From: an uncultured Candidatus Saccharibacteria bacterium
GTDB taxonomy: Bacteria; Patescibacteriota; Doudnabacteria; UBA920
Assembly (NCBI GenBank): GCA_964505635.1
Contig: CAZDIP010000002.1
Coordinates: 165,843-229,842, forward strand
Length of the DNA: 64,000 bases
Direction of reading: 5' to 3'
The notes beneath the pieces are model-generated. The model had not been told where the DNA came from. It worked only from the letters and a program-made list of their open reading frames with translations, and made no database searches. Shown here piece after piece: positions 1,251 through 61,538 of this stretch; position 1 is the first letter of the stretch, and each line of letters opens with the position of its first letter. A program made the translations under genes and the position numbers.

Positions 1251-4097
1251 TTATTTAATAGGATCCATCTCTCCCCAATTATCGCCCACTTTAGCTTCAG
1301 CCTTAATAGGAACGGATAAAGAAATTGCTTCTTCCATTAACTTCTTTATTATTTTGGCATAATGTTCTACCTTATCTTCCTTAACCTCAAATACCAATTC
1401 ATCATGCACCTGTAATAAATTTCGGATTTCGGATTTCGGATTTCGGATTTCTTTATGTATGTTTATCATCGCCACCTTTATTACATCTGCCGCCAAACTT
1501 TGTATGGGGAAATTAACCGCTGCCCTTTCCGCAGCCGCCCGAATAAAAAATTGGGAAGATTTAATTTCCGGAAACTTGCGCATTCGGCCTAATTCATTTC
1601 TCACAAAACCTTCCTGGTTAACCTGCAATTTAATTTGTTCAATATATTCTTCCACTTGCGGATAAGCTTTAAAATATTTTTCTATATACTGCTTGGCGTC
1701 CGCCCTGCTCATTTCACCCACGCGGGCAGAAAGCCCAAAACTGGACACGCCGTATAAAATGCCAAAGTTAATAGTTTTGGCATCGCGGCGCATATCTTTA
1801 GTTACTTGGGCGGCCTCAACTCCAAAAATTTCCATGGCGGTTTTTTCGTGAATATCTTCTTCGTCCTTAAACACCTGCATCATTTTTTTGTCTTGGGCCA
1901 AATGCGCGACTATTCGAAGTTCAATTTGCGAATAGTCCAAACTCAAAAGCTTAAAGCCTTTTTCTGCCACAAAAGCCTTGCGCACCTGGCTACCCAAACC
2001 TTCGCCCCTGACCGGGATATTTTGTAAATTGGGGTCAACAGAAGAAAGCCTGCCGGTAGCCGCAATCGTTTGGTTGTAACTGGTATGCAGCCGGCCGGTT
2101 TTTTTATTTACCATTTGGGGCAGCGTTGTTAAATAGGTGCTGTATAATTTCGCTACTTCCCTGTACTCTAAAATTTTTGGGATAATTTCGTGCTGTCCCA
2201 GCATTTTTTCCAAATTATCGGCCGAAGTGGACACTCCGGTTTTAGTACGCTTATTATTTATTGCTTCTAATTTTAGCTCGTCGAACAAAACTTCCTTAAG
2301 CTGCTTGGGGGAGGCGATATTAAATTCCCGGCCGGCTAATTTATAAATTTTGCCTTCCAAATCTTTTATAGAAATTTCCGCTTCCCCGGCCAGCTTGTTT
2401 AAAAGTTTAGTGTCTAATTTTATGCCGTTTAATTCCATGTCCGACAAAACTGCCACTAAAGGCATTTCTATTGTTTCAAAAACTTTAACAAGTCCGTTCT
2501 TTTTTAATTCCGGTTCAAATATTTCTTTAAGCCGCATTGTCATGTCCACATCTTCGCAGCAATACCAAGAAACTTTCTCTGGACTAACTTTGTCCATGGT
2601 AATTTGATCTTTGCCTTTGCCAATCAAATCTGTAATAGGCTGCATTTGGTAGCCCAGCTCGTTAAAAGCCAAGGCATCTAGCCCGTGCTGCCTGGTTCCG
2701 GCATTTAAAAGATATGAGGCTATCATCGTATCGAAGCTGATAACTGATAAATGATAACTGATAACTTTTAACACCTGTGCATCGTACTTTATGTTATGGC
2801 CGATTAGTTTTACTTTTCCAGACGTAAGTAAGGTTTTTAATTCAGGAGATGATAAAAATAGATCCGCGGGTACATAAAAAGCCTGGCCTGGCTTTACGCA
2901 AAAACCCACGCCCACCAATTCCGCGATAATTGGATCAAGCCCCGTGGTTTCCGTGTCAATTGATATTTCTGTAGTTTTCTGTAGTTCGGTAATTAATTTC
3001 TGTAGTTTTTCTTCCGTATCTACAAATATATAATCCTGTTTGCCAATAGCTTTTATTTCTTGATTCTGATCTGTAATGTCACCTCTTGCTACTTGATACT
3101 TGCCTGCCTCGCCGGCAGGCGGGCTTCCTGCTTCATTCTTCGGCAACTTCCCAAGCAAATTTCTAAATTCCAAGCTCTGAAACATCTTCACTGTCTTTTG
3201 CAAATGCTCCTGGTCTAATTCATACGCTTTAATTTCCGGGTCTATGCCCGGCACGTCGCAAATAATTTGCGAAAGTTCATACGACATTTTCGCCTGTTCT
3301 TCCTGTTCTTCTAAAAGCTTTAAAATTCTTTCTTTAATATTTTTTCGTGCTTGTGATTTTGGATTTCGGATTTGCTCATACAACTCTTTTATAGAATGGT
3401 ATTTTGAAATTAACTCGCTGCCTGTTTTTTCGCCAATGCCGCGCACGCCCGGGATGTTATCGCTCGGGTCGCCTCTTAAAGCTTTATAGTCCACCATTTG
3501 GTCGGGATTTAAGCCATAACGTTCCCTAACAGCCTTAGAGTCGTAAATTACAGTGTCGGTTAAGCCTTTTCTTGGCGCGTAAACCCTGACTTTGCCGTTT
3601 ACCAGCTGTAAAGTATCCATATCGCCGGTTAAAATAAATATCTCGGCATTCTCGTGGCTTTTGTCGTGAAAATGTTTGGACAAAGTTCCTAACACGTCGT
3701 CTGCCTCATAACCTTCCTTTTCATAAATTGGCACATTCATAGCCCTAAGCACGTCTTTAATTACCGGGATTTGGTCGTACAAAGCTTGGTCGGCCTTAAC
3801 CCTTGTTGCTTTATATTCTTTGTATTTTTCGTGCCTAAATGTAGGTCCGGCTAAATCAAAAGTCGCGGCTATGTGAGTAGCTTTTATATCCTTCATGGCC
3901 TTTAAAAATATAGTCAGAAAACCAAAAACTGCACCTGTTGGCCGTCCGTCTTTAGTGGTTAAATTAGGCAAAGCGTGATAGGCCCTGTGCACCAAGGCAT
4001 TCCCGTCTATTAAAAGATAGCGTTCACGCACACTTCCCCCTCTCCCTCTGGGAGAGGGTTGGGGTGAGGGTGAATTTTTAGATAGATATTCAGACAT
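1251..4097 (-). CDS. polA: DNA polymerase I
   Basis: 5'-nuclease N-terminus (LLIDGNALVHRAYHAL), 3'-5' exo and polymerase motifs (RRDAKTINFGILYG, LLQVHDELVFEV). Alternative GTG start at 4031 is preceded by a strong SD (AGGGGGAAG). Confidence 0.9.
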   Translation of the reverse strand: MSEYLSKNSPSPQPSPRGRGGSVRERYLLIDGNALVHRAYHALPNLTTKDGRPTGAVFGFLTIFLKAMKDIKATHIAATFDLAGPTFRHEKYKEYKATRVKADQALYDQIPVIKDVLRAMNVPIYEKEGYEADDVLGTLSKHFHDKSHENAEIFILTGDMDTLQLVNGKVRVYAPRKGLTDTVIYDSKAVRERYGLNPDQMVDYKALRGDPSDNIPGVRGIGEKTGSELISKYHSIKELYEQIRNPKSQARKNIKERILKLLEEQEEQAKMSYELSQIICDVPGIDPEIKAYELDQEHLQKTVKMFQSLEFRNLLGKLPKNEAGSPPAGEAGKYQVARGDITDQNQEIKAIGKQDYIFVDTEEKLQKLITELQKTTEISIDTETTGLDPIIAELVGVGFCVKPGQAFYVPADLFLSSPELKTLLTSGKVKLIGHNIKYDAQVLKVISYHLSVISFDTMIASYLLNAGTRQHGLDALAFNELGYQMQPITDLIGKGKDQITMDKVSPEKVSWYCCEDVDMTMRLKEIFEPELKKNGLVKVFETIEMPLVAVLSDMELNGIKLDTKLLNKLAGEAEISIKDLEGKIYKLAGREFNIASPKQLKEVLFDELKLEAINNKRTKTGVSTSADNLEKMLGQHEIIPKILEYREVAKLYSTYLTTLPQMVNKKTGRLHTSYNQTIAATGRLSSVDPNLQNIPVRGEGLGSQVRKAFVAEKGFKLLSLDYSQIELRIVAHLAQDKKMMQVFKDEEDIHEKTAMEIFGVEAAQVTKDMRRDAKTINFGILYGVSSFGLSARVGEMSRADAKQYIEKYFKAYPQVEEYIEQIKLQVNQEGFVRNELGRMRKFPEIKSSQFFIRAAAERAAVNFPIQSLAADVIKVAMINIHKEIRNPKSEIRNLLQVHDELVFEVKEDKVEHYAKIIKKLMEEAISLSVPIKAEAKVGDNWGEMDPIK
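4034..4075. repeat. GC-rich palindromic element (CCCTCTCCC-tct-GGGAGAGGG) at the polA 5' end
   Basis: Perfect 9-bp inverted repeat at 4038-4058 inside a GC-rich ~40-nt stretch that encodes the non-conserved SPSPQPSPRGRGG segment, or lies in the 5'UTR if the GTG start is used. Confidence 0.45.
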
Positions 4098-4287: not shown

Positions 4288-5052
4288 CTAGCTCCTTCGG
4301 CGGAAAACGCCTACGGAGAGCAGTCCGAGACCAATCAGCCCCAACGATGCTGGTTCCGGCGTATCCGAAGGCTTTTCTGAAGGAAACACCGACGGAACCT
4401 GCGCATAGCCATACTTAGACCACTGCGTGGTGTGCATCTGCGCGTCAGGAAAACTCTCCTTAAACGCATATTGCCAGGTATCGCTGTTCTGATACTGGCC
4501 GAACATGTATGCTGTCCACCACCCGAAAGATTCGTAGCTGCGTTGAGCGTTGTTATTCCAGATGCTGGTCTGGGTGCACAATCCCAGGTCGTCGCAGGTA
4601 TAGTAATACGAGCTGAAAGACTTGGTCTTGTACGTGTCTACCGACGTGCTGCCACCGATAGACGAGTAGCCCGTCGTATCGGCGTAGGAGTACGTATTGT
4701 TCATTTGCGTGGTTACGGTTGAGGTGGACAGCTGACTGCCCGATCCCCAATCCGCCCCCCACATATCCACCCCGCTGTACTCGCCGTAGCTGTCCTGGTA
4801 GGAAACCGTTTTCCAGGAGTTGACCCAGAATACGTCCCGCGCAAACCACCCGTCGTAATATGAGCCATTGCCGGCTCCCGAGTCCGTTGTTGTGGTGCCG
4901 TAGGCCCACGTGCCAGAGTAGTTGCAGGACGTCACGGTGCCGTAGCTACACGGCTCGTTGTTGTACGTACCATAGCTGTAATTTTCCACCGTGATAGGGG
5001 TTGCGCTGGCCGTGGCCGCGAAAACAAAAAACAAAATCGTCAAAAAGTTCAT
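4288..5052 (-). CDS. PEP-CTERM sorting-domain secreted protein (S/T/Y/G/W-rich)
   Basis: N-terminal signal peptide MNFLTILFFVFAATASA. C-terminal PEPASLGLIGLGLLSVGVFRRRS (PEP motif, TM helix, Arg cluster). Local GC is markedly higher than flanks. Confidence 0.65.
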   Translation of the reverse strand: MNFLTILFFVFAATASATPITVENYSYGTYNNEPCSYGTVTSCNYSGTWAYGTTTTDSGAGNGSYYDGWFARDVFWVNSWKTVSYQDSYGEYSGVDMWGADWGSGSQLSTSTVTTQMNNTYSYADTTGYSSIGGSTSVDTYKTKSFSSYYYTCDDLGLCTQTSIWNNNAQRSYESFGWWTAYMFGQYQNSDTWQYAFKESFPDAQMHTTQWSKYGYAQVPSVFPSEKPSDTPEPASLGLIGLGLLSVGVFRRRS

Positions 5053-5259: not shown

Positions 5260-6912
5260 TTAATCCCCAGCTACCCGAAAAACCTCTTCCACATCCGTAA
5301 TACCTTCCAGAGCTTTTAAAAGCCCGTCCTGCAACATGCTAACCATGCCTTGCTGCACGGCAACTTTTTTAAATTCACTCATTGCCGCCTCTTTCATTAT
5401 TAAATCCTGAATTTTTTCATCCACTTCAATAATTTCATAAATCCCCAGCCGGCCTTTATAACCCAAATTATGGCACCTAAAACAACCCGGGCTATGGTAA
5501 AAAGTTAAATTTTTGGGCAATTTAATATCCAGGCTTTTTGGCAACGCACCAAGGGCATGCCGCACCCTTTCCATTAAAGTCGGCGAAAGAGCGTAATTAA
5601 CTTTACAGGCCTGGCAAATTTTTCTAACCAGTCTTTGAGCCAGTACAGCCGACAAAGCAGGACCCACCACAAACGGCTTTACTCCCATGTTAATAAGCCG
5701 GGGGATAGCGCCGGAAGCATCGTTAGTATGCAAAGTAGAAAAAACCAAATGACCGGTCAAAGCCGCCTGCATGGCTACTTCGGCCGTCTCCTGGTCTCTT
5801 ATTTCCCCCACCATTACAATGTCCGGATCCTGCCTGAGTATCGCTCGTAAACCTTTGGCAAAATTAAAATCCACGTTATGGTCTATGGGTGTTTGGACAA
5901 TGCCTTCCAATTTATACTCCACCGGGTCTTCCAATGTAATAATTTTTACCCCGGGTTTATTTAGTTTGCTAATAAATGAATACAATGTAGTTGTTTTACC
6001 GCTGCCTGTGGGGCCGGTTGTAACAATCATGCCGTTGGGCTTTTCTAAAATTTTGCTAACTATGGAAAGCACTTCCGGCCTAAAACCCAAAGTCCCGACT
6101 TCTAAGCTAACATCTCCCCGGCCAAGCAGCCTCATAACAATTTCTTCCCCGTAGGCACTGGGCAAAACCGATACGCGTACGTCTATGGGTTTTTGTAAAA
6201 AATAAAAAGTCGCCCTGCCGTCCTGCGGGGAATTCTCCACATTTAGTTTTAATTTGGAAATTATTTTTATTCTTGATACCAGGCCCTTATAAACGCTCCT
6301 GTCTAAATGCAGCATGTCTTGCAAAACTCCATCTATACGAAAACGCAATTTCAAAAAATGCTCTTCCGGCTCCAAATGGATATCTGAAGCTCCAAGGTGC
6401 ACGGCGGCGCCAAAAATAATATCTATTAACTCGGAGGAGGTTTTCTGTTTTTGTATTTCCGCAGATTTAAGACTTTCCAGAATTTTTTGGAAATCAACCT
6501 GTCCGGAAATCATTACAGTGTCTTCATGCCTTGCTGTGGGTCTTAAAATTTTAGCAAAAAATTTTTTAACCATTTCCAGGCTGGTTTTGGAAACCAGATA
6601 TAAAGTCACGGTATTAGTTTGCGACAATTCCTCAACCTTGGCCATCAGTCCCGAATTGTAAGGATCAACCATTCCTACTCTTAAATCTTGATTTTCTTTA
6701 TAAAAAGGCACGGCGCCAAAACTTTCAGCCTCTTTTAAAGTAAACATACCCAACACGTTTAAGTCCACCGGAAACCCCTTAAGGTCAACATAGGGCAAAC
6801 CCAAAGCCACCGCTTTTACACGCGTTTCCTCTTCTTCCATCTTGCGGTTTACATCACTCAAAGTACGCTGTAAATCCTGGGGCGTACTGGATAAAAAATT
6901 ATGTTTTGACAT
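5260..6912 (-). CDS. pilB: type IV pilus/type II secretion ATPase, GspE/PilB family
   Basis: Walker A GPTGSGKTTTLYSF; N-terminal GspII_E_N-like region; C-terminal CxxC...C zinc motif (CFRCHNLGYKG). Confidence 0.85.
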   Translation of the reverse strand: MSKHNFLSSTPQDLQRTLSDVNRKMEEEETRVKAVALGLPYVDLKGFPVDLNVLGMFTLKEAESFGAVPFYKENQDLRVGMVDPYNSGLMAKVEELSQTNTVTLYLVSKTSLEMVKKFFAKILRPTARHEDTVMISGQVDFQKILESLKSAEIQKQKTSSELIDIIFGAAVHLGASDIHLEPEEHFLKLRFRIDGVLQDMLHLDRSVYKGLVSRIKIISKLKLNVENSPQDGRATFYFLQKPIDVRVSVLPSAYGEEIVMRLLGRGDVSLEVGTLGFRPEVLSIVSKILEKPNGMIVTTGPTGSGKTTTLYSFISKLNKPGVKIITLEDPVEYKLEGIVQTPIDHNVDFNFAKGLRAILRQDPDIVMVGEIRDQETAEVAMQAALTGHLVFSTLHTNDASGAIPRLINMGVKPFVVGPALSAVLAQRLVRKICQACKVNYALSPTLMERVRHALGALPKSLDIKLPKNLTFYHSPGCFRCHNLGYKGRLGIYEIIEVDEKIQDLIMKEAAMSEFKKVAVQQGMVSMLQDGLLKALEGITDVEEVFRVAGD

Positions 6913-7000
6913 GCTTTTTGTTTCTCTCTGTGAAATAAAAACAACAACTGCCTTTATTATAGCATTTGTTGTTTATGCTTGTCCTCTGCTTTCAAAAATT

Positions 7001-8149
7001 TTAATGGCTGGCAAATAAGCGCGCGAGCTTGTTTTCCAACTCTACGACCGTGGTGTCTGAAAGCTCATACTGCCTGGTCCAATAAGGCATCAAGCCATGA
7101 ACCCCTATCTTTATAGGTTGGCCTAAAAGCTGGTCCACTATAGAAGGATCGACTTGAACATGCCCAGCAAACTGCAAAGAAAACTTTCCATTACTGTGCT
7201 CTCCGGCCAAACAGAGCATTTTGTAACCGCTAATGTTGTCTATCAGCTCCCGCAAAAGCATGGGTAAATTTTCAAGACCAGCGCCGGACTTTTCAAAATC
7301 CGTGGTCAACAAAATTGAAAACACACCCTTGCTTTCCTGAATCAATTTAAGCCTGGCCAAAGAACGCCCCCAGAGTCTCAAATAAGGTAATGACCGGGTT
7401 TTATATAAATGCCTGACAATTTCCTGCTGATGTCCGCCTAAATCCATTAAGCGCGCCGCCTGCAAAAAAACCTTGGGCGTAGTTTGTGGCCTTTGAAAAC
7501 TGTTAGTCTGGCTAATAATTCCGCATAAAAGGCAGGTGGCAATATCTTCGGTTACCAGTTCCTTACGAGTCGCTTCAAAAAGTTCGGTTAATATTTCCGC
7601 GACCGATGTAGCGTTAATGTCTACGATATTAACAGCCGCAAAGTATTCGTTGCCGGCATTAAAATCCAAATTAACTTTTGGGGTTTGAAAAAACAAGTCT
7701 CCGGCATCTTCAAATAACTTGCCCAAAACCGACAAATTTTCACAACCCAAAATAATAATTAGGTCATAAAAGTCGTTTTGAATTTCAAAACTTACATCTT
7801 CCTGAGCAAAAACCCCGGGTTCAGATTTTAAATAAATTTTTACCTGGTTTTCAAAAATGTCATAACTCAGCTCCTTTAGCTTGTTATTTTTAGTGTTTAT
7901 TACTAAAGCGCCGGATTTACCCGTAAAGACAGAGTTTTTAATGTCTTCTATTCTAGGCAAAAAACCTGCGATCTTCGGCAGCTTGCCCGAGGTCGCAATA
8001 TACGGAGTCTTTTCAAAACCCCTTAAAAAAGCAGCCAAACTTAGTGCGCTGGCTGTAAGGTCAACTGTTAAATCTTCCGGCAGCGCAATTAAGATATTTT
8101 TTGCCTTATTAATAGCATTTAAAAATTCTGTAAAAGTAGTTTTTTCCAT
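7001..8149 (-). CDS. DHH/DHHA1-family paralog (NrnA-like) with degenerate catalytic motifs
   Basis: Shares DIATCLLCGIIS, LYKTRSLPYLRLWGRSLARL and GHVQV with the NrnA at 53990-54970, but the N-terminal DHH aspartates are replaced (ALPEDLTVDLTAS). Confidence 0.5.
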   Translation of the reverse strand: MEKTTFTEFLNAINKAKNILIALPEDLTVDLTASALSLAAFLRGFEKTPYIATSGKLPKIAGFLPRIEDIKNSVFTGKSGALVINTKNNKLKELSYDIFENQVKIYLKSEPGVFAQEDVSFEIQNDFYDLIIILGCENLSVLGKLFEDAGDLFFQTPKVNLDFNAGNEYFAAVNIVDINATSVAEILTELFEATRKELVTEDIATCLLCGIISQTNSFQRPQTTPKVFLQAARLMDLGGHQQEIVRHLYKTRSLPYLRLWGRSLARLKLIQESKGVFSILLTTDFEKSGAGLENLPMLLRELIDNISGYKMLCLAGEHSNGKFSLQFAGHVQVDPSIVDQLLGQPIKIGVHGLMPYWTRQYELSDTTVVELENKLARLFASH

Positions 8150-8264
8150 AAATAAATGATTAAACAGTATAATTGATTCTTGCGCCTAAGTCAATATTAT
8201 TTAGGACACGCCTGCCGATGGCAAAAAGTTGCGGTATTAATAACAATTGGGTTAAAATAACCAC

Positions 8265-8669
8265 ATGAAGCCGGACATGCTGATAGAAATCAAAAATTCC
8301 AAAACAGCAGCGGAAAAAATAGCCCAAACCCTCAAGGGTGGAGAAATTATGGGGCTTATAGGCACTTTGGGCGCGGGAAAAACGACTTTTGTTCAACACC
8401 TTGGTAAGGTCCTTAATGTTAAACAGCGCATCACCAGTCCCGGTTTTAGCCTTATGAATATTTATTATGCTAAATTAAGCAGCGGGAAAAAAATTTACTT
8501 TTACCATTTGGATCTCTATAGGACGCGTAATTTTCGCGAGGTTAAAGACTTGGGCCTAACTGAGGTTTGGGGCAAAAAAAATGTAATTACCATTATTGAG
8601 TGGGCAAATAAAATTAACAAACATTTACCAACAAAAACCCGTATTTTAAAATTTTCCAATGAACATTAA
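8265..8669 (+). CDS. tsaE: tRNA threonylcarbamoyladenosine biosynthesis protein TsaE
   Basis: P-loop GLIGTLGAGKTTFVQ; size and context match the YjeE family. Confidence 0.8.
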   Translation: MKPDMLIEIKNSKTAAEKIAQTLKGGEIMGLIGTLGAGKTTFVQHLGKVLNVKQRITSPGFSLMNIYYAKLSSGKKIYFYHLDLYRTRNFREVKDLGLTEVWGKKNVITIIEWANKINKHLPTKTRILKFSNEH

Positions 8670-10012: not shown

Positions 10013-11056
10013 ATGATAACTTCATCTAACCAACAAGAAACTTCCGGTGTTATTCGGCAAGATATTGAACCCGAAGATCTTTTAATAGAGCAAAACCTGC
10101 GCCCGCAAATCCTGGATGAATACATTGGCCAGGCCTCGGTTAAAGAAAACCTCAAAGTTTTAATGCAGGCGGCAAAGCAAAGAGCGGAACATTTAGAGCA
10201 TTTGCTATTTTATGGCCCACCGGGTTTAGGTAAAACCACCCTGGCTCTGATTATAGCCAAAGAAATGGGTGCAAATATTAAAGTAACCTCCGGCCCGGCG
10301 ATTGAAAGGGCAGGCGACCTAGCTTCACTTTTAACCAACCTTTCCGAAGGTGATGTTTTGTTTATTGACGAAATTCATAGGCTTAACAAAGTGGTGGAAG
10401 AAGTCTTGTATCCTGCTATGGAAGACTTTATTTTAGACATTGTTCTTGGCAAAGGCCCGGGAGCCAGGAGTATTAGAATGGATTTGCCAAAATTCACGTT
10501 AATTGGAGCCACGACCAGAATCGGCTTAATCTCCAGTCCGCTAAGAGATCGTTTTGGAGCCACCTATCGCCTGGAGTACTACCAGCCCCACGAAATAAAA
10601 TCTATAATCCACCGTTCTAGCAAAATTTTAAACACCAATATAGAAGGAAGTGCGGCTTTAGAATTAGCCAACCGATCCCGCTTTACTCCGCGCATTGCCA
10701 ATAGACTGTTAAAGCGAGTGCGTGATTTTGTTCAAGTCCACAAGCGTGATACAATAGATCTAAACTCCGCGCAACAAGCCTTACAAATGCTAGAGGTTGA
10801 TTCTTTGGGATTAGATAAAAATGACTTAAGAATTCTTGACGCCCTGATTAACAAGTTTAACGGCAAGCCGGTCGGCCTCACCACCCTGGCAGCCGCAACC
10901 GGCGAGGAAGAGGACACAATAACCGATCTGCACGAACCCTTTTTACTACGGCTGGGGCTTATAACCAAAACCCCCAAAGGCCGGCAAGCCACCAAAAACG
11001 CCTACACTCACCTGGGTATAAATGCCCCGGAAAACTTACAAAACACTTTACTTTAA
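10013..11056 (+). CDS. ruvB: Holliday junction branch migration ATPase RuvB
   Basis: [15 protein letters not shown] Walker A, sensor and winged-helix regions. Confidence 0.92.
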
Positions 11057-47229: not shown

Positions 47230-47390
47230 GCGTCGCAATTTGTTTCGGGCCTTCGTTCCGACTTGAGTTTAAATTCGTAACTCGCACCCTTCACAATTGC
47301 TTCTTTTCCCCAAAAATCCGTGCTCGTCCCGATTAGTATCGGGACTGCGCTCCTGATTTTTGAGGACCTCTTTTTAGGGGATTTATATTT

Positions 47391-47554: not shown

Positions 47555-48205
47555 TTATTTAGCCAGAGCTAATTCAAAGTTTTTTAATAAGGTAATTCTT
47601 TCCTGTTCAGCGTCTTCGGTTAGCTGGTTTAATTCATTTAACTTTTTTTCACAGCCGTAAACCCAGTTGCTGCTACCCGGATACACATAAATGCCTTTCA
47701 TTTTTTTGCAGGTCGTGTATCTTTCTTTGTAAATCGGTTTTTCAAGCAATTTACTCAAGTCTTCAAACCAGTCTAATTTGGTCGGGTAAGTTCTCCATAA
47801 AGGGTGGCCGGGGGCTACCCCGATTCCGCTACAGTTATTGCTCTTGCCCGGACAGTGTTTGCCGAAATTGCTTTCTACCCAGGAAATAGCCAGGGCGCGC
47901 TGCCACTGAGGGAAATTGGGAATTTCTTCCGCGTATTGAGCTAAGGGTGAACCGTGTTTTTCTAAATAACTTTTTAAGTTTTTGGTTAAGGGATCTTCGC
48001 TAATTATAGCGTTGATGTTTAAAAGGTTTTGGGTTTGGATTTTGGAAAAGTCTTTGATTTCAAAAACTAATTGCTGATTGCTCTGAGTCTGAGGGCTTAA
48101 AGCGGCCCGCATAACTTCCGGATATACCAAAGGAGTTATGGAAATTGCCAAAGTTATAACAACGGCAATTTTTTTAGCAGACTCAAGAGTAAAGAGAGCT
48201 TTCAT
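47555..48205 (-). CDS. secreted hypothetical protein, possibly lysozyme-like/lytic transglycosylase-like
   Basis: N-terminal TM/signal; ALAISWVESNFGKH...SGIGV loosely resembles the SLT ES-x-F/N...GA.G motif. Confidence 0.35.
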   Translation of the reverse strand: MKALFTLESAKKIAVVITLAISITPLVYPEVMRAALSPQTQSNQQLVFEIKDFSKIQTQNLLNINAIISEDPLTKNLKSYLEKHGSPLAQYAEEIPNFPQWQRALAISWVESNFGKHCPGKSNNCSGIGVAPGHPLWRTYPTKLDWFEDLSKLLEKPIYKERYTTCKKMKGIYVYPGSSNWVYGCEKKLNELNQLTEDAEQERITLLKNFELALAK

Positions 48206-48679
48206 TCTTTAAATCAAACTCCTTTCTCCCCTTGCCTTAAAGCTTGTTAGCTTTTTTGGCAATGCTGATTATATGTATTAAAAGGTACTATTAGCCAATT
48301 TCGACCTTAAGTTATTAATTTAAGTTATTGGCTATAAATAAAAAAGTGCCATGTAGCACTTTCTTAATATAATTATACTCTCTTTTCAAAGCTTTTTCAA
48401 GCCTTTTTTGCTTGTTTAAGCCATATTTAAGCCAAAAAACATTTCTTTACTCTTACCTTTGCCAAAATTCAGCCCTCTTAAATAAGCCAAAACTTGTTTT
48501 TTAAATATATGGCCAAAGATTGCCGTCATGGTGGTTTAGTTGGTTTATAAAGGCTTAAATTTGTTTATATAAAAAGCTCAAAAGTCGCTTTTTGGGTAAT
48601 TAGCGAATGCATACTAAGGGTGAAACCGTATTTTACCGTAATTTAAAACCCAATATTTAGAAAATTAACTAAATATTAC

Positions 48680-49417
48680 TTATTTTCTTTTGCCAAAGAT
48701 CCTTAAAAATTTTAGGAATAGGTTTATAAAATCTAAGTATAAGGTCAGGGCCCCCATAATTGCCTCTTTTTTATCTGCGTCAGAGTTTGTGTTCATCACT
48801 GTATTCATATCTTTTATTTTTTGCGTGTCGTAGGCGGTTAAGCCGACAAAAATAAAAATACCCGCATAAGTTGTTATCCAATCGAGTGTGCTATTAAGCC
48901 AAAATAAATTAACAAGGGTGGCAACAACTAAACCAAACAGCAGCATGCCGAGCAAATTTCCCCAAGCAGTTAAATCTGTTTTAGTATAATAACCATATAG
49001 CGCCATGGCCCCAAATACTCCCGCGGTTATAACTAATGCAAGAGCAATTGAACTTGCAGTATAAACCAGGAAGATAAAACCTAGGGTTATCCCATTTAAA
49101 GCCGAATATAAAATAAATGTTAGGCGCGCTGCTGCAAGCGACATTGTTTTTACCATTGAAGATAAATAAGCAACCATTATAATCTCTAAAATTAACAACC
49201 CGTAAAAAATAAGATGATTGCCGAACACTAACTGGCTTAAAGAAGGGCTGCTTGCGATGAAGCCGGCAGCTGCGGCGCTTATGCATAAAGCAATGGCCAT
49301 CCAGCCAAAAACCTGAGTTATAAAACTTTGTTCGTCTATGGCAAAAGTCGGGTCAATTAGGGTAGGGGCTGCTGTTATATTCCGCTGCAGAACAGGCGGA
49401 ATCGTTTTGTTTTCCAT
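48680..49417 (-). CDS. Bax inhibitor-1/YccA family membrane protein
   Basis: 7 TM; C-terminal GALTLYLDFINLFLKFLRIFG typical of BI-1 family. Confidence 0.75.
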   Translation of the reverse strand: MENKTIPPVLQRNITAAPTLIDPTFAIDEQSFITQVFGWMAIALCISAAAAGFIASSPSLSQLVFGNHLIFYGLLILEIIMVAYLSSMVKTMSLAAARLTFILYSALNGITLGFIFLVYTASSIALALVITAGVFGAMALYGYYTKTDLTAWGNLLGMLLFGLVVATLVNLFWLNSTLDWITTYAGIFIFVGLTAYDTQKIKDMNTVMNTNSDADKKEAIMGALTLYLDFINLFLKFLRIFGKRK

Positions 49418-49488
49418 TGTTTTGTTTCTTTTATTTAATTATATTCTTAGAATGAGTATAACAAAAAACACCTTTAAGTAAAGATGTT

Positions 49489-49715
49489 TTTGTGGAGCGC
49501 CTAACCCCGCATAACTAGAAAACTCGTATGCGGGGCGTGGCGGGAAGTTTCCAATTCCCTTTGACAAATGAAAAAACTTTCACAAAATTGTGAAAGTTTT
49601 TTCATTGGAGCGGGTAATCCACCTACGCTAAAGCTTCGGCGGACAGGCGGGAAAAGTTCTCATTCCCACTGACAAAAAGAAAATGCCCGACCGTTGAGGT
49701 CAGGCATATTCTTTT
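49489..49715. repeat. two ~110-bp tandem repeat units, each beginning with a copy of the tRNA-Gly 3' end (TGGAGCG[GG/CC]TAA) and ending in a terminator-like hairpin
   Basis: unit1 49492-49600, unit2 49606-49715; shared GGCGGGAA(A)AGTT.C.ATTCCC..TGACAAA core; unit3 is the intact tRNA-Gly. Confidence 0.5.
49679..49715 (-). terminator. terminator hairpin downstream of tRNA-Gly
   Basis: atgcctgacc-tcaac-ggtcgggcat stem (with a G-U) followed by uuuuc on the minus strand. Confidence 0.45.
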
Positions 49716-49788
49716 GGAGCGGGTAACGGGAATCGAACCCGTGTCATTTGATTGGCAACCAAATGTACTACCATTGTACTATACCCGC
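49715..49788 (-). tRNA. tRNA-Gly (anticodon GCC)
   Basis: acceptor gcgggta/tacccgc, anticodon loop uuGCCaa, T-loop ttcgatt, CCA. Confidence 0.85.
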
Positions 49789-49789
49789 C

Positions 49790-50080
49790 TGGTGCCTCGG
49801 GTCAGAATCGAACTGACTACGCCAGCCTCTTCCAAGGCTTTTTTGGACTATATCATCATCCCGAAATTTTCGGGAGCTGGGCGCTTAGTACGGGATTATT
49901 GTTGGGACTCACCCGTTAGTCTCTACGCCTTTTCCGGCACCTTTGCCCGCCGGAACTTGGTTCGGGATTGTTATCTTTTAAGATAGTTTTTCCCGAGTTC
50001 ACCCAGTTTTTCTCAATCCACCTTGCGGCGGATGGCCCCAAAGATTTTAGGGCTGCGCTCTACCAATGAGCTACCGAGGC
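49790..50080 (-). tRNA. tRNA-Phe (anticodon GAA) interrupted by a group I intron in the anticodon loop
   Basis: 5' exon GCCTCGGTAGCTCATTGGTAGAGCGCAGCCCT (ends at U33); 3' exon GAAGAGGCTGGCGTAGTCAGTTCGATTCTGACCCGAGGCACCA; the spliced product closely matches canonical tRNA-Phe. Confidence 0.65.
49833..50048 (-). ncRNA. group I self-splicing intron (~216 nt)
   Basis: P1 between exon GCCCU and internal guide GGGGC (U.G at the splice site); P-like GCGGGCAAAGG, R-like GUAGAGACUAAC and S-like AUGAUAUAGUCC elements (P7 GACUA/UAGUC); terminal G before the 3' exon. Confidence 0.55.
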
Positions 50081-50846: not shown

Positions 50847-52319
50847 TTACCACCCGGACCGTTCTTTCCTGACAGCAATTACCATTTTGCGCAGTGGGTC
50901 GTTATCTTTTGGCATTCCTGCCCAGGTGGAAGTCGCTCCACCCATGAGGCGGCTCATGAGACAACCGTTGTTGCAACGAATTTTGGGATTCGTTTGAGCC
51001 GCCAGGCGACTCATTCCTCCCAGCAAGTAGTCTTCTACCTGCTGGATGCTTTCTATCCGAACAAGGTCGCTTACAGTATAGCGGTTCCAGTAGCAGGCTA
51101 GTTTGAGGCCAGGGAAGACGCCTGCTTCCCACGGCGTGACGGTTGCGGCTCCGGCGCCTTCAATCTTAACCTGTCCCCAGGTTTCGCCGGTGATGCCCAT
51201 CTGCGTATAGAAGCCGGCACCAATGTCTTCGTAGCAGCGCCAGAGTCCGTGGCCAGACATGGCCAAACACAGGCGATCTGGGTCTTTGTTATACAGTCGG
51301 ATTGCGGCTTCCAGGAGATCCCAGAAATGGTGCCGTGACGGGATAAACCGTTGATTGGCCGGTTTATCATGTTCGTCTAGGGCCCAAGTGACGATTTTGT
51401 GGATGTGAGGCAGGTCGTCCGGCGAAAACAATGCTTCGCCATTGGACGGGCTGCTCTGCGCCGGGTACGGGTTGAAAATCATGGACGGAAACTCAGCATG
51501 AGCCGCTGCCGCCATTTCCAACAAGTGTGGGACGTTGGTATGCTTGAACACCACGTTCCAGAGAATGCGCGAATTCGGAAATCCTTCTCGCAAGATACGC
51601 CGGGTGGCAGCGACGCCTGCAAGCAGTTTCTTTCGCGGCCCCTGGAATTTGTTGAGTTTGTTGTGCGCGGCGACCAGTTCTTCTTCTGTCATGGACAGAA
51701 CCTGAGCCAGATCGTCAGGGCTGGTGATGTGGTCAAAGCTGAAGGCAAATACTTTTGGAGGGTGTCGCTTCAACATGGCAACGAACCTGCCGGTTGTGTC
51801 GGATGCGATGCGCCAACCTACTGCTGTCAAGTTGGCACTTACATCATTTTCCTCGCACCACCGAAACCCTGGTTCGAGGTTGTTGAAGAGCTCGGTGTTG
51901 CCACCGAAAAAGTTCAACCCCTTTTTGCCGGAAACCACCCCTGCCTTGAATGCTTCCGATTGTGCTGTCGGCGCCTCCATACGCTCCATCAGTTCGTTGA
52001 ATTTTGTGCTGTTGACCCAAAAATTCCACGCTCTGATTTGGGCTTGGAAAATCATGTCAACGCGCTGGATGATCTCTCCAATAGGCGCGTAGCTTGCCGT
52101 CCGGATACCGGGATTTCTGACAGAAGCCCCGTCGCAGTCGTAGTCGTTTTGGGTTGGATTGCCTTGGTCGTCTGTAAGGACACAGTTGTAGTTACAGACC
52201 TCTCCTTCGCCGAAGCTTCCGTTGCCATGATCCGCCCACGCAGACACGAAGTTGATCTGTGCGGCTGCAGTTTCGGGATGAATGTAACCCTGTTCACGAA
52301 GTTTGTCTATAGCGCTCAT
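50847..52319 (-). CDS. hypothetical 490-aa protein, GC-rich (Cys motifs CNYNC and CNNGC; function unknown)
   Basis: long ORF with much higher GC than the genome background; no confident family assignment from sequence alone. Confidence 0.45.
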   Translation of the reverse strand: MSAIDKLREQGYIHPETAAAQINFVSAWADHGNGSFGEGEVCNYNCVLTDDQGNPTQNDYDCDGASVRNPGIRTASYAPIGEIIQRVDMIFQAQIRAWNFWVNSTKFNELMERMEAPTAQSEAFKAGVVSGKKGLNFFGGNTELFNNLEPGFRWCEENDVSANLTAVGWRIASDTTGRFVAMLKRHPPKVFAFSFDHITSPDDLAQVLSMTEEELVAAHNKLNKFQGPRKKLLAGVAATRRILREGFPNSRILWNVVFKHTNVPHLLEMAAAAHAEFPSMIFNPYPAQSSPSNGEALFSPDDLPHIHKIVTWALDEHDKPANQRFIPSRHHFWDLLEAAIRLYNKDPDRLCLAMSGHGLWRCYEDIGAGFYTQMGITGETWGQVKIEGAGAATVTPWEAGVFPGLKLACYWNRYTVSDLVRIESIQQVEDYLLGGMSRLAAQTNPKIRCNNGCLMSRLMGGATSTWAGMPKDNDPLRKMVIAVRKERSGW

Positions 52320-59849: not shown

Positions 59850-60026
59850 ATGAGCCTCCGTCGAATACCACGGCTAAAGCCTCAGATGAAGGCGGAACGG
59901 ATTACTTATATCATTAACACATCCATACTGCTTCGGCCGGTTCCAAAGAAATTAGGCTGATAAACCCGCCGAAGCTTTAGCGAAGGCGGGTATGGATGGC
60001 ACACGGCTTTAGCCGTGGGAGTCCAT
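59850..60026 (+). ncRNA. structured 5' leader RNA of HTH-murA (riboswitch/attenuator-like, class unknown)
   Basis: long-range helix CCACGGCUAAAGCC (59866-59879)/GGCUUUAGCCGUGG (60004-60017), helix CAUCCAUAC/GUAUGGAUG, and mutually exclusive pairings UGCUUCGGC/GCCGAAGC vs CCCGCC/GGCGGG adjacent to the RBS GGGAG. Confidence 0.4.
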
Positions 60027-61538
60027 ATGACTGAACAAGAAAAAATCGGGCAGTTTGTTTTTCAAATAAGAGAACAAAAGGGCCTGACTCAATCAGAATT
60101 TGCAAAAAGGCTTAAAACCAGCCAATCGGCGGTGGCTCGCATGGAAAAGGGTCAACAAAATTTTTCTACCGAAATGCTGGCTAAAATCAGCGGAGTTTTG
60201 GGTAAAGATATAATCACCCTTTCCGGAGATTCCTTGAGTTTTAAAATTACGGGGGGATTTAAACTCTCGGGACGCGTTTTTACCAACGCCTCAAAAAACG
60301 CCGCTTTAGGCCTTTTGTGCGCTTCGCTGCTTAATAAAGGCGTAACAACTTTAAAGAACCTCCCAAAAATAGAGGAAATTTTTAGATTTATTGAGGTTTT
60401 GCAAAGTATTGGGGTATTGTTGAAATGGGATGGCGCGGATTTAATTATTAAACCCCCTAAAAGGTTTTTAATTAAGAATTTAGACAAGGATGCGGCTGTT
60501 AAAACCCGGAGTGTAATAATGTTGATGGGCCCCCTCGCGCATTTTGTTAAAAATTTTTCCCTGCCCTTTGCCGGAGGTTGCAAGTTGGGAGAAAGAACGG
60601 CAGCTCCCCACCTGCTCGCGTTGGAGTCTATGGGAGTTGAGGTTAAAACCGTTCACGATCATTATGAAATTACATGCGGAAAGCTTCGGCCGGCGGAGTT
60701 TGTTTTATATGAAATGGGAGATACTGTGACGGAAAATGCCATTATGGCCGCGGCGTTAATTCCGGGCAAGACTGTAATTAAGCTGGCCTCCAGTAACTAT
60801 ATGGTGCAGGATGTTTGTTTGTTTTTACAAGCCTTGGGGGTAAAAATTGAGGGTTTGGGAACATCCACTTTGGCCATACATGGTGTGCCGGAAATTAATA
60901 AAGACGTGACTTTTAGCGTTATGGAAGACCCGATTGAGTCAATGATGTTTCTTACCATAGCCGCTTTGACTGAGTCGGCGATTATAATAGAAAAGTGTCC
61001 GATTGATTTTTTGCAGATGGAATTATTCAAAATGCGAAAAATGGGGTTTAAATATAAAATACTCAAGAGCTATAAGTCAGCCAATAATTATACCAACTTG
61101 GCTGATATACAGACTTTTCCTTCCCGGCTTGTTGCCGCTGATGTAAAAATTCATCCCCTGCCTTCTAACGCAGGCATAAACATAGATAACTTGCCATTTT
61201 TTGTTCCCTTGGCGGCAAAAGCCGAGGGCAAAACCTTAATTCACGATTGGGTTTATGAAAACAGGGCAATATATTATTTAGAGTTAAATAAATTGCGCGC
61301 AAATGTTACCCTGTTAGACGCACATCGGGTTATAGTAGAAGGGCCGACTGAATTAAAGGCCGCCGAGGTTATTTGTCCTCCGGCTTTGCGGCCGGCTGCC
61401 GTGATTTTAATTGCCATGCTTGCGGCTAAAGGTACTTCCATTTTAAGAAATGTTTACTCAATTTCCAGGGGCTATGAAGATTTAGCCTCCCGCTTGGCAA
61501 AATTAGGAGCAAAAATTGAAGTTATAAAAGGAATTTAA
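60027..61538 (+). CDS. murA: UDP-N-acetylglucosamine 1-carboxyvinyltransferase with N-terminal XRE-type HTH domain
   Basis: N-terminal ~65 aa IGQFVFQIREQKGLTQSEFAKRLKTSQSAVARMEKG (Cro/C1 HTH); MurA core KITGGFKLSGRVFTNASKNAALGLL and the catalytic Cys loop FAGGCKLGERTAAPH. Confidence 0.85.
   Translation: MTEQEKIGQFVFQIREQKGLTQSEFAKRLKTSQSAVARMEKGQQNFSTEMLAKISGVLGKDIITLSGDSLSFKITGGFKLSGRVFTNASKNAALGLLCASLLNKGVTTLKNLPKIEEIFRFIEVLQSIGVLLKWDGADLIIKPPKRFLIKNLDKDAAVKTRSVIMLMGPLAHFVKNFSLPFAGGCKLGERTAAPHLLALESMGVEVKTVHDHYEITCGKLRPAEFVLYEMGDTVTENAIMAAALIPGKTVIKLASSNYMVQDVCLFLQALGVKIEGLGTSTLAIHGVPEINKDVTFSVMEDPIESMMFLTIAALTESAIIIEKCPIDFLQMELFKMRKMGFKYKILKSYKSANNYTNLADIQTFPSRLVAADVKIHPLPSNAGINIDNLPFFVPLAAKAEGKTLIHDWVYENRAIYYLELNKLRANVTLLDAHRVIVEGPTELKAAEVICPPALRPAAVILIAMLAAKGTSILRNVYSISRGYEDLASRLAKLGAKIEVIKGI

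Follow-up and report, generated by a model that had tools for sequence, protein, structure and literature searches.

Organization of the tRNA-Gly locus

We analysed a 64-kb stretch of DNA, hereafter the window, which is core chromosome carrying dnaA, dnaN, recF, polA, gyrA, infB and the gene for S1; named homologues of the neighbouring proteins come from Candidatus Doudnabacteria, which makes this probably a genome of the candidate phyla radiation (CPR). The locus of interest lies between a tRNA cluster and a BI-1/YccA gene, the neighbours given in a first-pass annotation of this DNA. Read in the sense of the tRNAs, on the minus strand, it runs through tRNA-Gly(GCC), terminator T1, unit 2, an exact copy of the last 12 nt of the tRNA, terminator T2, unit 1, a variant copy, terminator T3, a promoter and yccA. 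The parts are as follows:

50182-50106, minus: tRNA-Val
49715-49788, minus: tRNA-Gly(GCC), called by ARAGORN and matching the Rfam tRNA model at 73.6 bits; ends in GTTACCCGCTCCA
49726-49715, minus: repeat copy 1, the last 12 nt of tRNA-Gly (TTACCCGCTCCA), including CCA
49673-49714, minus: T1, intrinsic terminator of tRNA-Gly from the terminator scan (stem 49707-49683 plus U run)
49618-49672, minus: body of unit 2, consisting of TTTGTCA, hairpin A, GCC and hairpin C
About 49647-49669, minus: hairpin A of unit 2, GGGAAT..TTCCC
About 49618-49644, minus: hairpin C of unit 2, UCCGCC GAAGCUUUAGCGUA GGUGGA
49606-49617, minus: repeat copy 2, exact TTACCCGCTCCA by sequence match
49567-49605, minus: T2, a bidirectional terminator formed by a perfect 19-bp palindrome, with A and T runs beside it
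49505-49566, minus: body of unit 1, with TTTGTCA, hairpin A, GCC and hairpin C in the same order as in unit 2
About 49542-49559, minus: hairpin A of unit 1
About 49505-49536, minus: hairpin C of unit 1, CCCCGCAUA..UAUGCGGGG
49493-49504, minus: repeat copy 3, variant TTAGGCGCTCCA (plus strand TGGAGCGCCTAA)
49464-49491 (region 49450-49492), minus: T3, a weak A/U-rich terminator hairpin found as an inverted repeat
Within 49450-49492, minus: yccA promoter, extended -10-like TGTTATACT; promoter-like TTTACT-16-TATACT in the promoter scan
48680-49417, minus: BI-1/YccA gene (PF01027)

The exact 12-mer (TGGAGCGGGTAA on the plus strand) occurs in the window at 49606-49617 and 49715-49726 and nowhere else, and by our own arithmetic about 0.008 extra exact copies would be expected by chance in 64 kb. 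All three copies, including the variant, are co-oriented and spaced by 113 and 109 nt. The units between them are related: positions 49542-49575 and 49650-49683 are 71% identical over 34 nt, the two bodies are 61% identical, and the pattern GGGAATN{5,11}TTCCCGCC occurs twice in the window against 0.01 expected. The arms of the T2 palindrome (49567-49585 and 49588-49606) are 19 nt long and 100% complementary, and the second hairpin, at 49683-49707, coincides with the minus-strand terminator call of T1. The first-pass annotation had listed the repeated tRNA end, the variant copy, the related units and both hairpins; every one of these elements is present, with coordinates that move by a base or two at most (by one for the variant copy). 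A contig (L001) of an independent Logan assembly has the same sequence throughout the region, although it may come from the same sample.

Occupancy of the tRNA-Gly end in syntenic relatives

We found relatives of the locus through homologues of the RNHCP protein encoded just upstream of tRNA-Val. A route through YccA was dropped, as its closest homologues (74%, in L002-L008; L numbers denote the sequences compared) are non-syntenic; they exposed a tRNA-Trp example that is described below. The order RNHCP, tRNA-Val, tRNA-Phe, tRNA-Gly(GCC), variable segment, tRNA-Cys, tRNA-Leu and ornithine/arginine decarboxylase is conserved in L130-L134 and L138-L142, and the same tRNA-Gly has behind it nothing, a single module, a module together with a gene, or a module of greater length. 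The slot taken by yccA in the window holds other genes in syntenic relatives and is variable cargo beside the hot spot proposed below.

Two relatives are empty at this site. In L138, tRNA-Gly (ending TTAGCCGCTCCA) is followed directly by a T3-type terminator and the TGTTATACT promoter, with no module, and this sequence is 86% identical to the T3 region of the window. The window locus corresponds to an L138-like ancestor plus 222 nt. T3 is probably the ancestral terminator of the tRNA-Gly gene. The variant copy 3 of the window differs by one base from the tRNA-Gly 3' end TTAGCCGCTCCA of L130, L138 and L140, and variant copies in general match other tRNA-Gly alleles. In L133, tRNA-Gly is followed by a terminator, Tx, again without a module. 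Its close relative L132, whose flanks are 99.6-99.8% identical, has an extra 117 nt made up of 103 nt (terminator Ty plus a ~60-nt module) and the 14-nt direct repeat GTTACCCGCTCCAA; the indel is clean, is bounded by this repeat, and the insert is not a copy of adjacent L133 sequence. An insertion of the IS200/IS605 type after TTAC was considered and rejected, as it leaves the 14-nt repeat unexplained.

Larger contents occur as well. L131 has an extra 942 nt that comprise a module, the 12-mer, a terminator, a 220-aa membrane ORF that sits between the repeats, and the variant copy TTAAGCCGCTCCA, behind which a second Tx stands. L131, L132 and L133 have in common one more degenerate copy, about 335 nt downstream. 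L130 carries a structured module of ~150 nt between tRNA-Gly and a 23-nt copy of the tRNA end, and L140 a homologous module without a terminal 12-mer copy. Thus, as at tRNA attachment sites, the inserted DNA is bounded by a direct repeat that exactly matches the 3' part of the intact tRNA gene, and the segment is present or absent among related genomes with breakpoints at the repeat (L132 versus L133, and the empty L138). The first-pass annotation had held that the same arrangement throughout the relatives, with no element at this site in any of them, would count against integration; the arrangement is not uniform, and some relatives do carry elements there. The L132/L133 pair does not by itself prove movement, since slippage between the 14-nt repeats could equally have deleted the segment from L133.

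In L130, which belongs to the Doudnabacteria genome GCA_016788665.1, a gene for an OLD-family (TOPRIM/AAA) nuclease and one Mrr/nSTAND gene lie directly downstream of the tRNA-Gly array (5840-8318), and therefore the site appears to host a defence island in this genome.

Terminators and modules have relatives in other genomes

Among themselves, T1, T2 and T3 are 52% identical, and each is closer to a terminator of another genome (80-93%). T1 is 93% identical to Ty, which follows tRNA-Gly in L132, T2 shares 80% identity with the terminator that follows the repeat copy of L130, and T3, besides its 86% match in L138, is 80% identical to a terminator of L131 (Tz). Because each terminator resembles that of another genome far more than its neighbours, the array is no recent local duplication. 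The modules show a similar spread: unit 2 is homologous to modules in L056, L131, L132 and L140, the body of unit 1 is 60% identical to that of the L132 module, and the L056 module is recognisably homologous to the window units in GGGAAT.., TTCCCGCCTGyCC, hairpin C and the 12-mer. This module type follows tRNA-Gly(UCC) in L056 and tRNA-Gly(GCC) in L131, L132 and L140.

These comparisons bear on a purely local origin, in which slippage or unequal crossing-over would have duplicated ~110 bp of tRNA 3' end and downstream sequence in tandem, with later divergence and no foreign DNA. The regular period of 113 and 109 nt and the 61% identity of unit bodies with the same order of parts would suit such a history. 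However, the terminators are mutually unrelated while each has its homologue in a different genome, the L132 insert does not copy neighbouring L133 sequence, and arrays elsewhere hold unrelated ORF-bearing segments, and we regard local duplication as very unlikely.

Comparable arrays in other genomes

A metagenome scan with the last 28 nt of the window tRNA-Gly returned 120 loci from many phyla. Five AT-rich contigs (L056, L093, L112, L119 and L127) show tRNA-Gly, a terminator, one module of 88-241 nt, a 12-27 nt copy of the tRNA end and a second terminator; the array in L119 is neighboured by genes for a Zeta toxin and a PIF1 helicase. In the arrays of L024 and L047 the segments are 0.7-1.2 kb long and all terminate in the 12-mer, which has one mismatch at the most; the ORFs of these segments encode a GIY-YIG nuclease (PF01541), NYN and HopA1-like proteins and unrecognised products. 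The same layout is found with a 19-nt copy behind tRNA-Trp in L002-L008 and with a 19-nt copy behind tRNA-Pro in L126. The footprint recurs behind tRNA-Gly, tRNA-Trp and tRNA-Pro genes of several genomes, and at least some of these are genomes of CPR bacteria.

Searches of other sequence collections gave no further copies. Viral contigs searched with T1, the L131/L132 module core and the two-copy pattern held no module copy, the one match (L144) being a proline-rich coding repeat in a giant-virus bin, and phage and plasmid records gave no match. A scan of 185,579 species genomes with the unit-core pattern produced one match, L009, which we attribute to chance because it lies inside an ORF-like stretch with no tRNA nearby. 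Our literature search on GIY-YIG genes with tRNAs in CPR bacteria, or on CPR tRNA repeats, found nothing specific.

Longer, GC-rich modules of 150-240 nt stand behind tRNA-Trp, tRNA-Gly and tRNA-Pro (L002 3842-3992, L130 5313-5450, L127 and L126). They begin with a common motif, GGAATCGAAC(GGG), which is antisense to the T-loop; in L002, L130 and L126 this 5' motif pairs with the 3' T-loop copy and closes a multi-hairpin domain, and the first hairpin covaries among four sequences. These longer modules may represent an undescribed RNA or recombination-site architecture.

Strand and structure of the units

Both units fold strongly (z = -4.8 for unit 2 and -6.0 for unit 1), and for unit 2 the minus strand reaches -45 kcal/mol against -35 kcal/mol for the plus strand. 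The G.U wobbles of T1 and of the unit 2 hairpin C turn into C.A mismatches when the plus strand is read, and the tRNA-sense strand folds more stably in nine of ten modules. Hairpin C keeps its position next to the 12-mer, with compensatory change at three pairs among six sequences, which is suggestive, though thin. T-box, primer-binding-site and antisense 'anti-tRNA' readings of the plus strand were rejected: wobble pairs and fold energies favour the minus strand, no plus-strand gene lies downstream, and no reverse-transcriptase family was found among the scanned window ORFs.

The strand preference raises the alternative that the tRNA-sense strand of each unit encodes a small structured RNA or serves as a cis-acting RNA module. 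Such an RNA would comprise two hairpins and a single-stranded tail that reproduces the 3' acceptor strand of tRNA-Gly with its CCA. Transcription reading through from the tRNA operon would supply it, tRNA-like trimming would follow, and the product could mimic a tRNA 3' end, for instance to divert or compete for enzymes or toxins that have these ends as substrate; the genes may themselves be mobile. The strong folds, the sense-strand wobbles, the placement of hairpin C with its compensatory changes, a terminator for every unit, the occurrence of one module type behind tRNA-Gly genes of two anticodons (UCC in L056, GCC in L131, L132 and L140) and the stem between the 5' GGAATCGAAC motif and the T-loop copy in the longer modules are all consistent with this idea. 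Yet no unit matched Rfam 15 at the gathering score, with chance-level matches only at E up to 10 and none for related modules either, and a covariance model built from six short modules found no further members in ~816 kb; its 12-22-bit matches to tRNA-Gly genes are attributed to the shared 12-mer. No sense-strand promoter was seen, by eye or by promoter scan, between the strong terminators and the units that follow them, the 3' tail has no pairing partner inside the unit, the covariation comes from six sequences only, and the modules are dispensable, since they are present or absent among near-identical strains. We therefore consider an RNA function of this kind unlikely, though the conserved hairpins and their bias towards the tRNA-sense strand speak for it.

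A different explanation of the same structures is that the units are decayed copies of whole tRNA-Gly genes, left by repeated duplication or replacement of the tRNA, with the older copies losing their body and keeping their 3' end and terminator. The distance from GGGAAT to CCA (63-67 nt by our own count) is about that from the D-loop to the CCA of a tRNA, copy 3 and T3 correspond to the tRNA end and terminator of L138, hairpin C of unit 2 resembles the 5' leader hairpin of the tRNA-Gly(UCC) genes in L056 and L112, and degenerate tRNA-Phe copies do exist beside tRNA-Phe in L126 and L130. However, in 30 local-alignment comparisons of the unit bodies with five tRNA-Gly genes, assessed against shuffles, p ranged from 0.03 to 0.99 and none survived multiple testing, and the Rfam tRNA model (RF00005) matched no unit at E up to 10. 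An exact 12-mer beside a wholly unrecognisable body would not be expected under uniform decay, and the same 12-mer bounds kilobase ORF-bearing segments. Decayed tRNA copies are accordingly quite unlikely.

Recombinases and homing endonucleases

The first-pass annotation had stated that no integrase gene is adjacent, and this holds. We scanned 39 ORFs of the window (those of 200 aa or more, 38 in number, with one exception, and three shorter ones), and none matched a recombinase, transposase or homing-endonuclease family. The ORFs scanned beside the arrays in L024, L047, L093, L112, L119, L126 and L130-L133 likewise gave no recombinase-family match. Since the scanned ORFs of the window and of these loci thus hold no integrase inside or next to the element, the locus does not belong to the classical integrase-bearing class. 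An ORF of 490 aa at 50847-52319 was considered as a hidden recombinase and set aside, with no Pfam, NCBIfam or PHROG match; a similarly placed ORF in L139 has a weak radical-SAM match.

No GIY-YIG ORF was found in the window by jackhmmer, and no endonuclease ORF lies there between the gene and its displaced 3' fragment, as it would in a homing-endonuclease cassette. This feature is present in L024 and L047, where GIY-YIG genes lie behind tRNA-Gly, and LAGLIDADG-like genes near RNHCP in relatives are indicated by faint precomputed Pfam matches.

The tRNA-Phe(GAA) gene of the window, which lies between tRNA-Val and tRNA-Gly (49790-50080, minus) and was missed by ARAGORN, is interrupted between U33 and G34 by a 216-nt group I intron at 49833-50048 (Rfam Intron_gpI, 61 bits). 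L104 has a 76% similar intron, and tRNA-Phe is uninterrupted in L130-L134, L138 and L140-L142. Small GIY-YIG genes adjoin tRNA-Phe in L126 (about 10100-10390, minus) and L130 (4733-5048, plus; broken by a stop codon) and are flanked by partial or degenerate tRNA-Phe copies, which break at the anticodon loop, where the intron of the window is also inserted. These genes look like free-standing homing endonucleases that target the intron site.

A candidate insertion hot spot in the tRNA-Gly 3' end

We favour, with some reserve, the reading that two ORF-less mini-cassettes have accreted in tandem here, the 3' end of tRNA-Gly being an att-like hot spot of recombination. The repeat architecture, the variation of syntenic relatives at exactly this site, the ORF-bearing segments bounded by the same 12-mer and the homology of terminators across genomes are direct observations. 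The hot spot would be the last 12-14 bp of the tRNA-Gly(GCC) gene (GTTACCCGCTCCAA, with the invariant part CGCTCCA), and each inserted segment would consist of a terminator, ~55 nt with two hairpins, and its own copy of the last 12 nt of the tRNA. A crossover inside the tRNA end is proposed, in which the incoming DNA would bring that end together with a new terminator; because the crossover would lie within the end that the incoming DNA carries, the tRNA would stay intact and gain a new terminator, and the former end and former terminator would be displaced downstream. In the window, the cassettes would be T1 plus unit 2 plus the 12-mer, with T1 as the opening part of the tRNA-proximal cassette, and T2 plus unit 1 plus the variant 12-mer, both preceding the ancestral end and terminator (variant 12-mer plus T3). 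The agent may be a trans-acting site-specific recombinase; alternatively, the homing endonucleases (GIY-YIG, LAGLIDADG, group I intron) that crowd the tRNA clusters may have set off break repair or gene conversion. Both the direction of the events, as insertions and not deletions alone, and their mechanism are inferred.

Several findings weigh against accretion. A segment of ~100 bp is very small for a circular recombination intermediate, no integrase, transposase or recombinase match appeared among the scanned ORFs of the window or of the array neighbours, the L140 module lacks the terminal 12-mer, the conserved module hairpins are unexpected for a pure scar, and no copy was found in the viral contigs or the phage or plasmid records searched.

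The first-pass annotation had offered either a scar of repeated integration and excision, with the cargo lost, or duplicated small RNA genes. The integration or hot-spot part is favoured because relatives vary exactly at this site and because ORF-bearing segments lie between the same 12-mers elsewhere. The small-RNA part is weakened by the lack of an Rfam match and of a promoter of the units' own, and by the strong terminators upstream. The loss of cargo is not established, because the ~100-nt modules recur as a conserved type; they may never have had genes. The mini-cassettes are most likely relics or non-autonomous elements whose only function is to terminate the tRNA transcript.

A broader claim, which we hold to be rather doubtful, is that CPR bacteria share a family of 90-250 bp gene-less hairpin cassettes that insert specifically at the terminal 12-27 bp of tRNA-Gly, tRNA-Trp and tRNA-Pro genes and form integron-like arrays with small gene cassettes and no integrase in cis, or else that the cassettes encode RNAs mimicking the 3' end of the neighbouring tRNA. 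If such a family exists, it would imply a trans-acting or unconventional insertion mechanism, possibly one that depends on structure or on an endonuclease.

Relation to known systems

tRNA genes are classic landing sites for mobile DNA, and to our knowledge the known cases of insertion into them are kilobase elements with their own integrase. What sets the present locus apart is the tandem arrangement, at a tRNA end, of gene-less, hairpin-bearing cassettes of ~100 bp with no nearby recombinase among the scanned ORFs. If the mini-cassettes are active, they would mark a hot spot where very small genomes swap yccA and genes for membrane proteins, nucleases, toxins and defence, and would point to a mobilising activity still to be found. 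The tRNA-end fragments can also mislead tRNA annotation and the calling of island boundaries in metagenome-assembled genomes.

Partial tRNA copies that bound integrated DNA are a general phenomenon and a source of tRNA fragments (PMC9897764); attL/attR direct repeats of tRNA-integrated elements, with tandem accretion of genomic islands among them, are covered by Reiter 1989 and Williams 2002, both cited there. The present locus resembles such elements in that an intact tRNA gene is followed by inserted DNA ending in a partial 3' copy of the tRNA, in its multi-copy arrays, in occupancy that varies by strain, and in the accessory, toxin and defence genes found at the site in relatives. In contrast, segments of the window type are gene-less, measure only 90-250 bp and have a conserved hairpin design in common; their repeat spans only 12-14 bp, and no integrase was found in or near the examples scanned.

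[quoted passage not shown] The mini-cassettes would likewise be non-autonomous; they are flanked by att-type repeats, stand in tandem at the 3' end of a tRNA or gene, and have no recombination genes of their own. However, CIMEs are kilobases long and lie beside, or derive from, an identifiable ICE, whereas the window units measure ~100 bp and no autonomous partner was found in the window or the compared loci.

Free-standing homing-endonuclease genes at the 3' end of a host gene, as in fungal mitochondria (Allomyces atp6), bring a replacement 3' end and displace the old one. The order of gene, new 3' end, inserted segment and displaced old 3' end is the same here, and GIY-YIG genes occupy that position behind tRNA-Gly in L024 and L047 and lie beside tRNA-Phe in L126 and L130. 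Unlike these cassettes, the window units and most of the arrays examined are without an endonuclease ORF.

Integron cassette arrays and CALINs offer a further likeness, in that ordered short cassettes, some of them ORF-less, share a short conserved core, the newest stands at a fixed site, and no integrase lies near. The core here is a tRNA 3' end, whereas that of integrons is GTTRRRY. An attC reading was rejected, as no attC architecture was visible by eye and neither unit has an R'' box (RYYYAAC) upstream; only the variant copy 3 happens to read GTTAGGC, which fits the R' consensus GTTRRRY. It is on account of this site architecture that membership in the integron attC class fails.

Other conserved elements in and around the tRNA clusters

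Some further elements of the window recur in other genomes. A hairpin motif with a covarying outer stem (CCCGCC/GGCGGG, UCCGCC/GGUGGA or CAACC/GGUUG) around GAAGC-loop-GCG(U/A)A occurs at 59963-59988 (plus) of the window, at 4587-4612 (inverted) of L130, just past tRNA-Gly in L024 and in the tRNA-Gly(UCC) leaders of L056 and L112. In the window it lies within a structured leader upstream of an ORF for an HTH-EPSP synthase fusion (60015-61538), and in L056 and L112 the leader pairs with the 5' acceptor strand of the tRNA itself to make the stem.

In L002, at 3139-3345, tRNA-Thr is accompanied by an 18-nt copy of its D-arm/anticodon-stem region ~115 nt upstream and is enclosed by a 19-bp inverted repeat (CCCCGCAGCATTTTTCAAA / TTTGAAAAATGCTGCGGGG); the D-arm copy indicates that 5'-side partial tRNA copies also exist in such genomes.

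Between yccA and the ORF at 47555-48205, a 173-nt non-coding stretch (48325-48497, minus) is 87% identical to L131 and L132, which far exceeds the 66-72% of the coding DNA next to it. Within it lie repeated TTGGC/GCCAA-like boxes, a good promoter and a terminator with a short hairpin, and it is probably a regulatory region or a tiny RNA.

Finally, a spacer element of ~75 nt with a long hairpin, CC(C)CAAAAA..(G)AG(C/U)GCA-hairpin-GAGCACG..UUUUUGGGGAA(A/U)AG(A/G)AGC, lies between tRNA-Cys and tRNA-Leu of the window (47296-47366, minus), in L131 (4752-4830) and in L002 (about 3595-3670). It has no Rfam match, is conserved in several genomes where the flanking tRNA pairs differ, and may act as a signal for the processing of tRNA operons.
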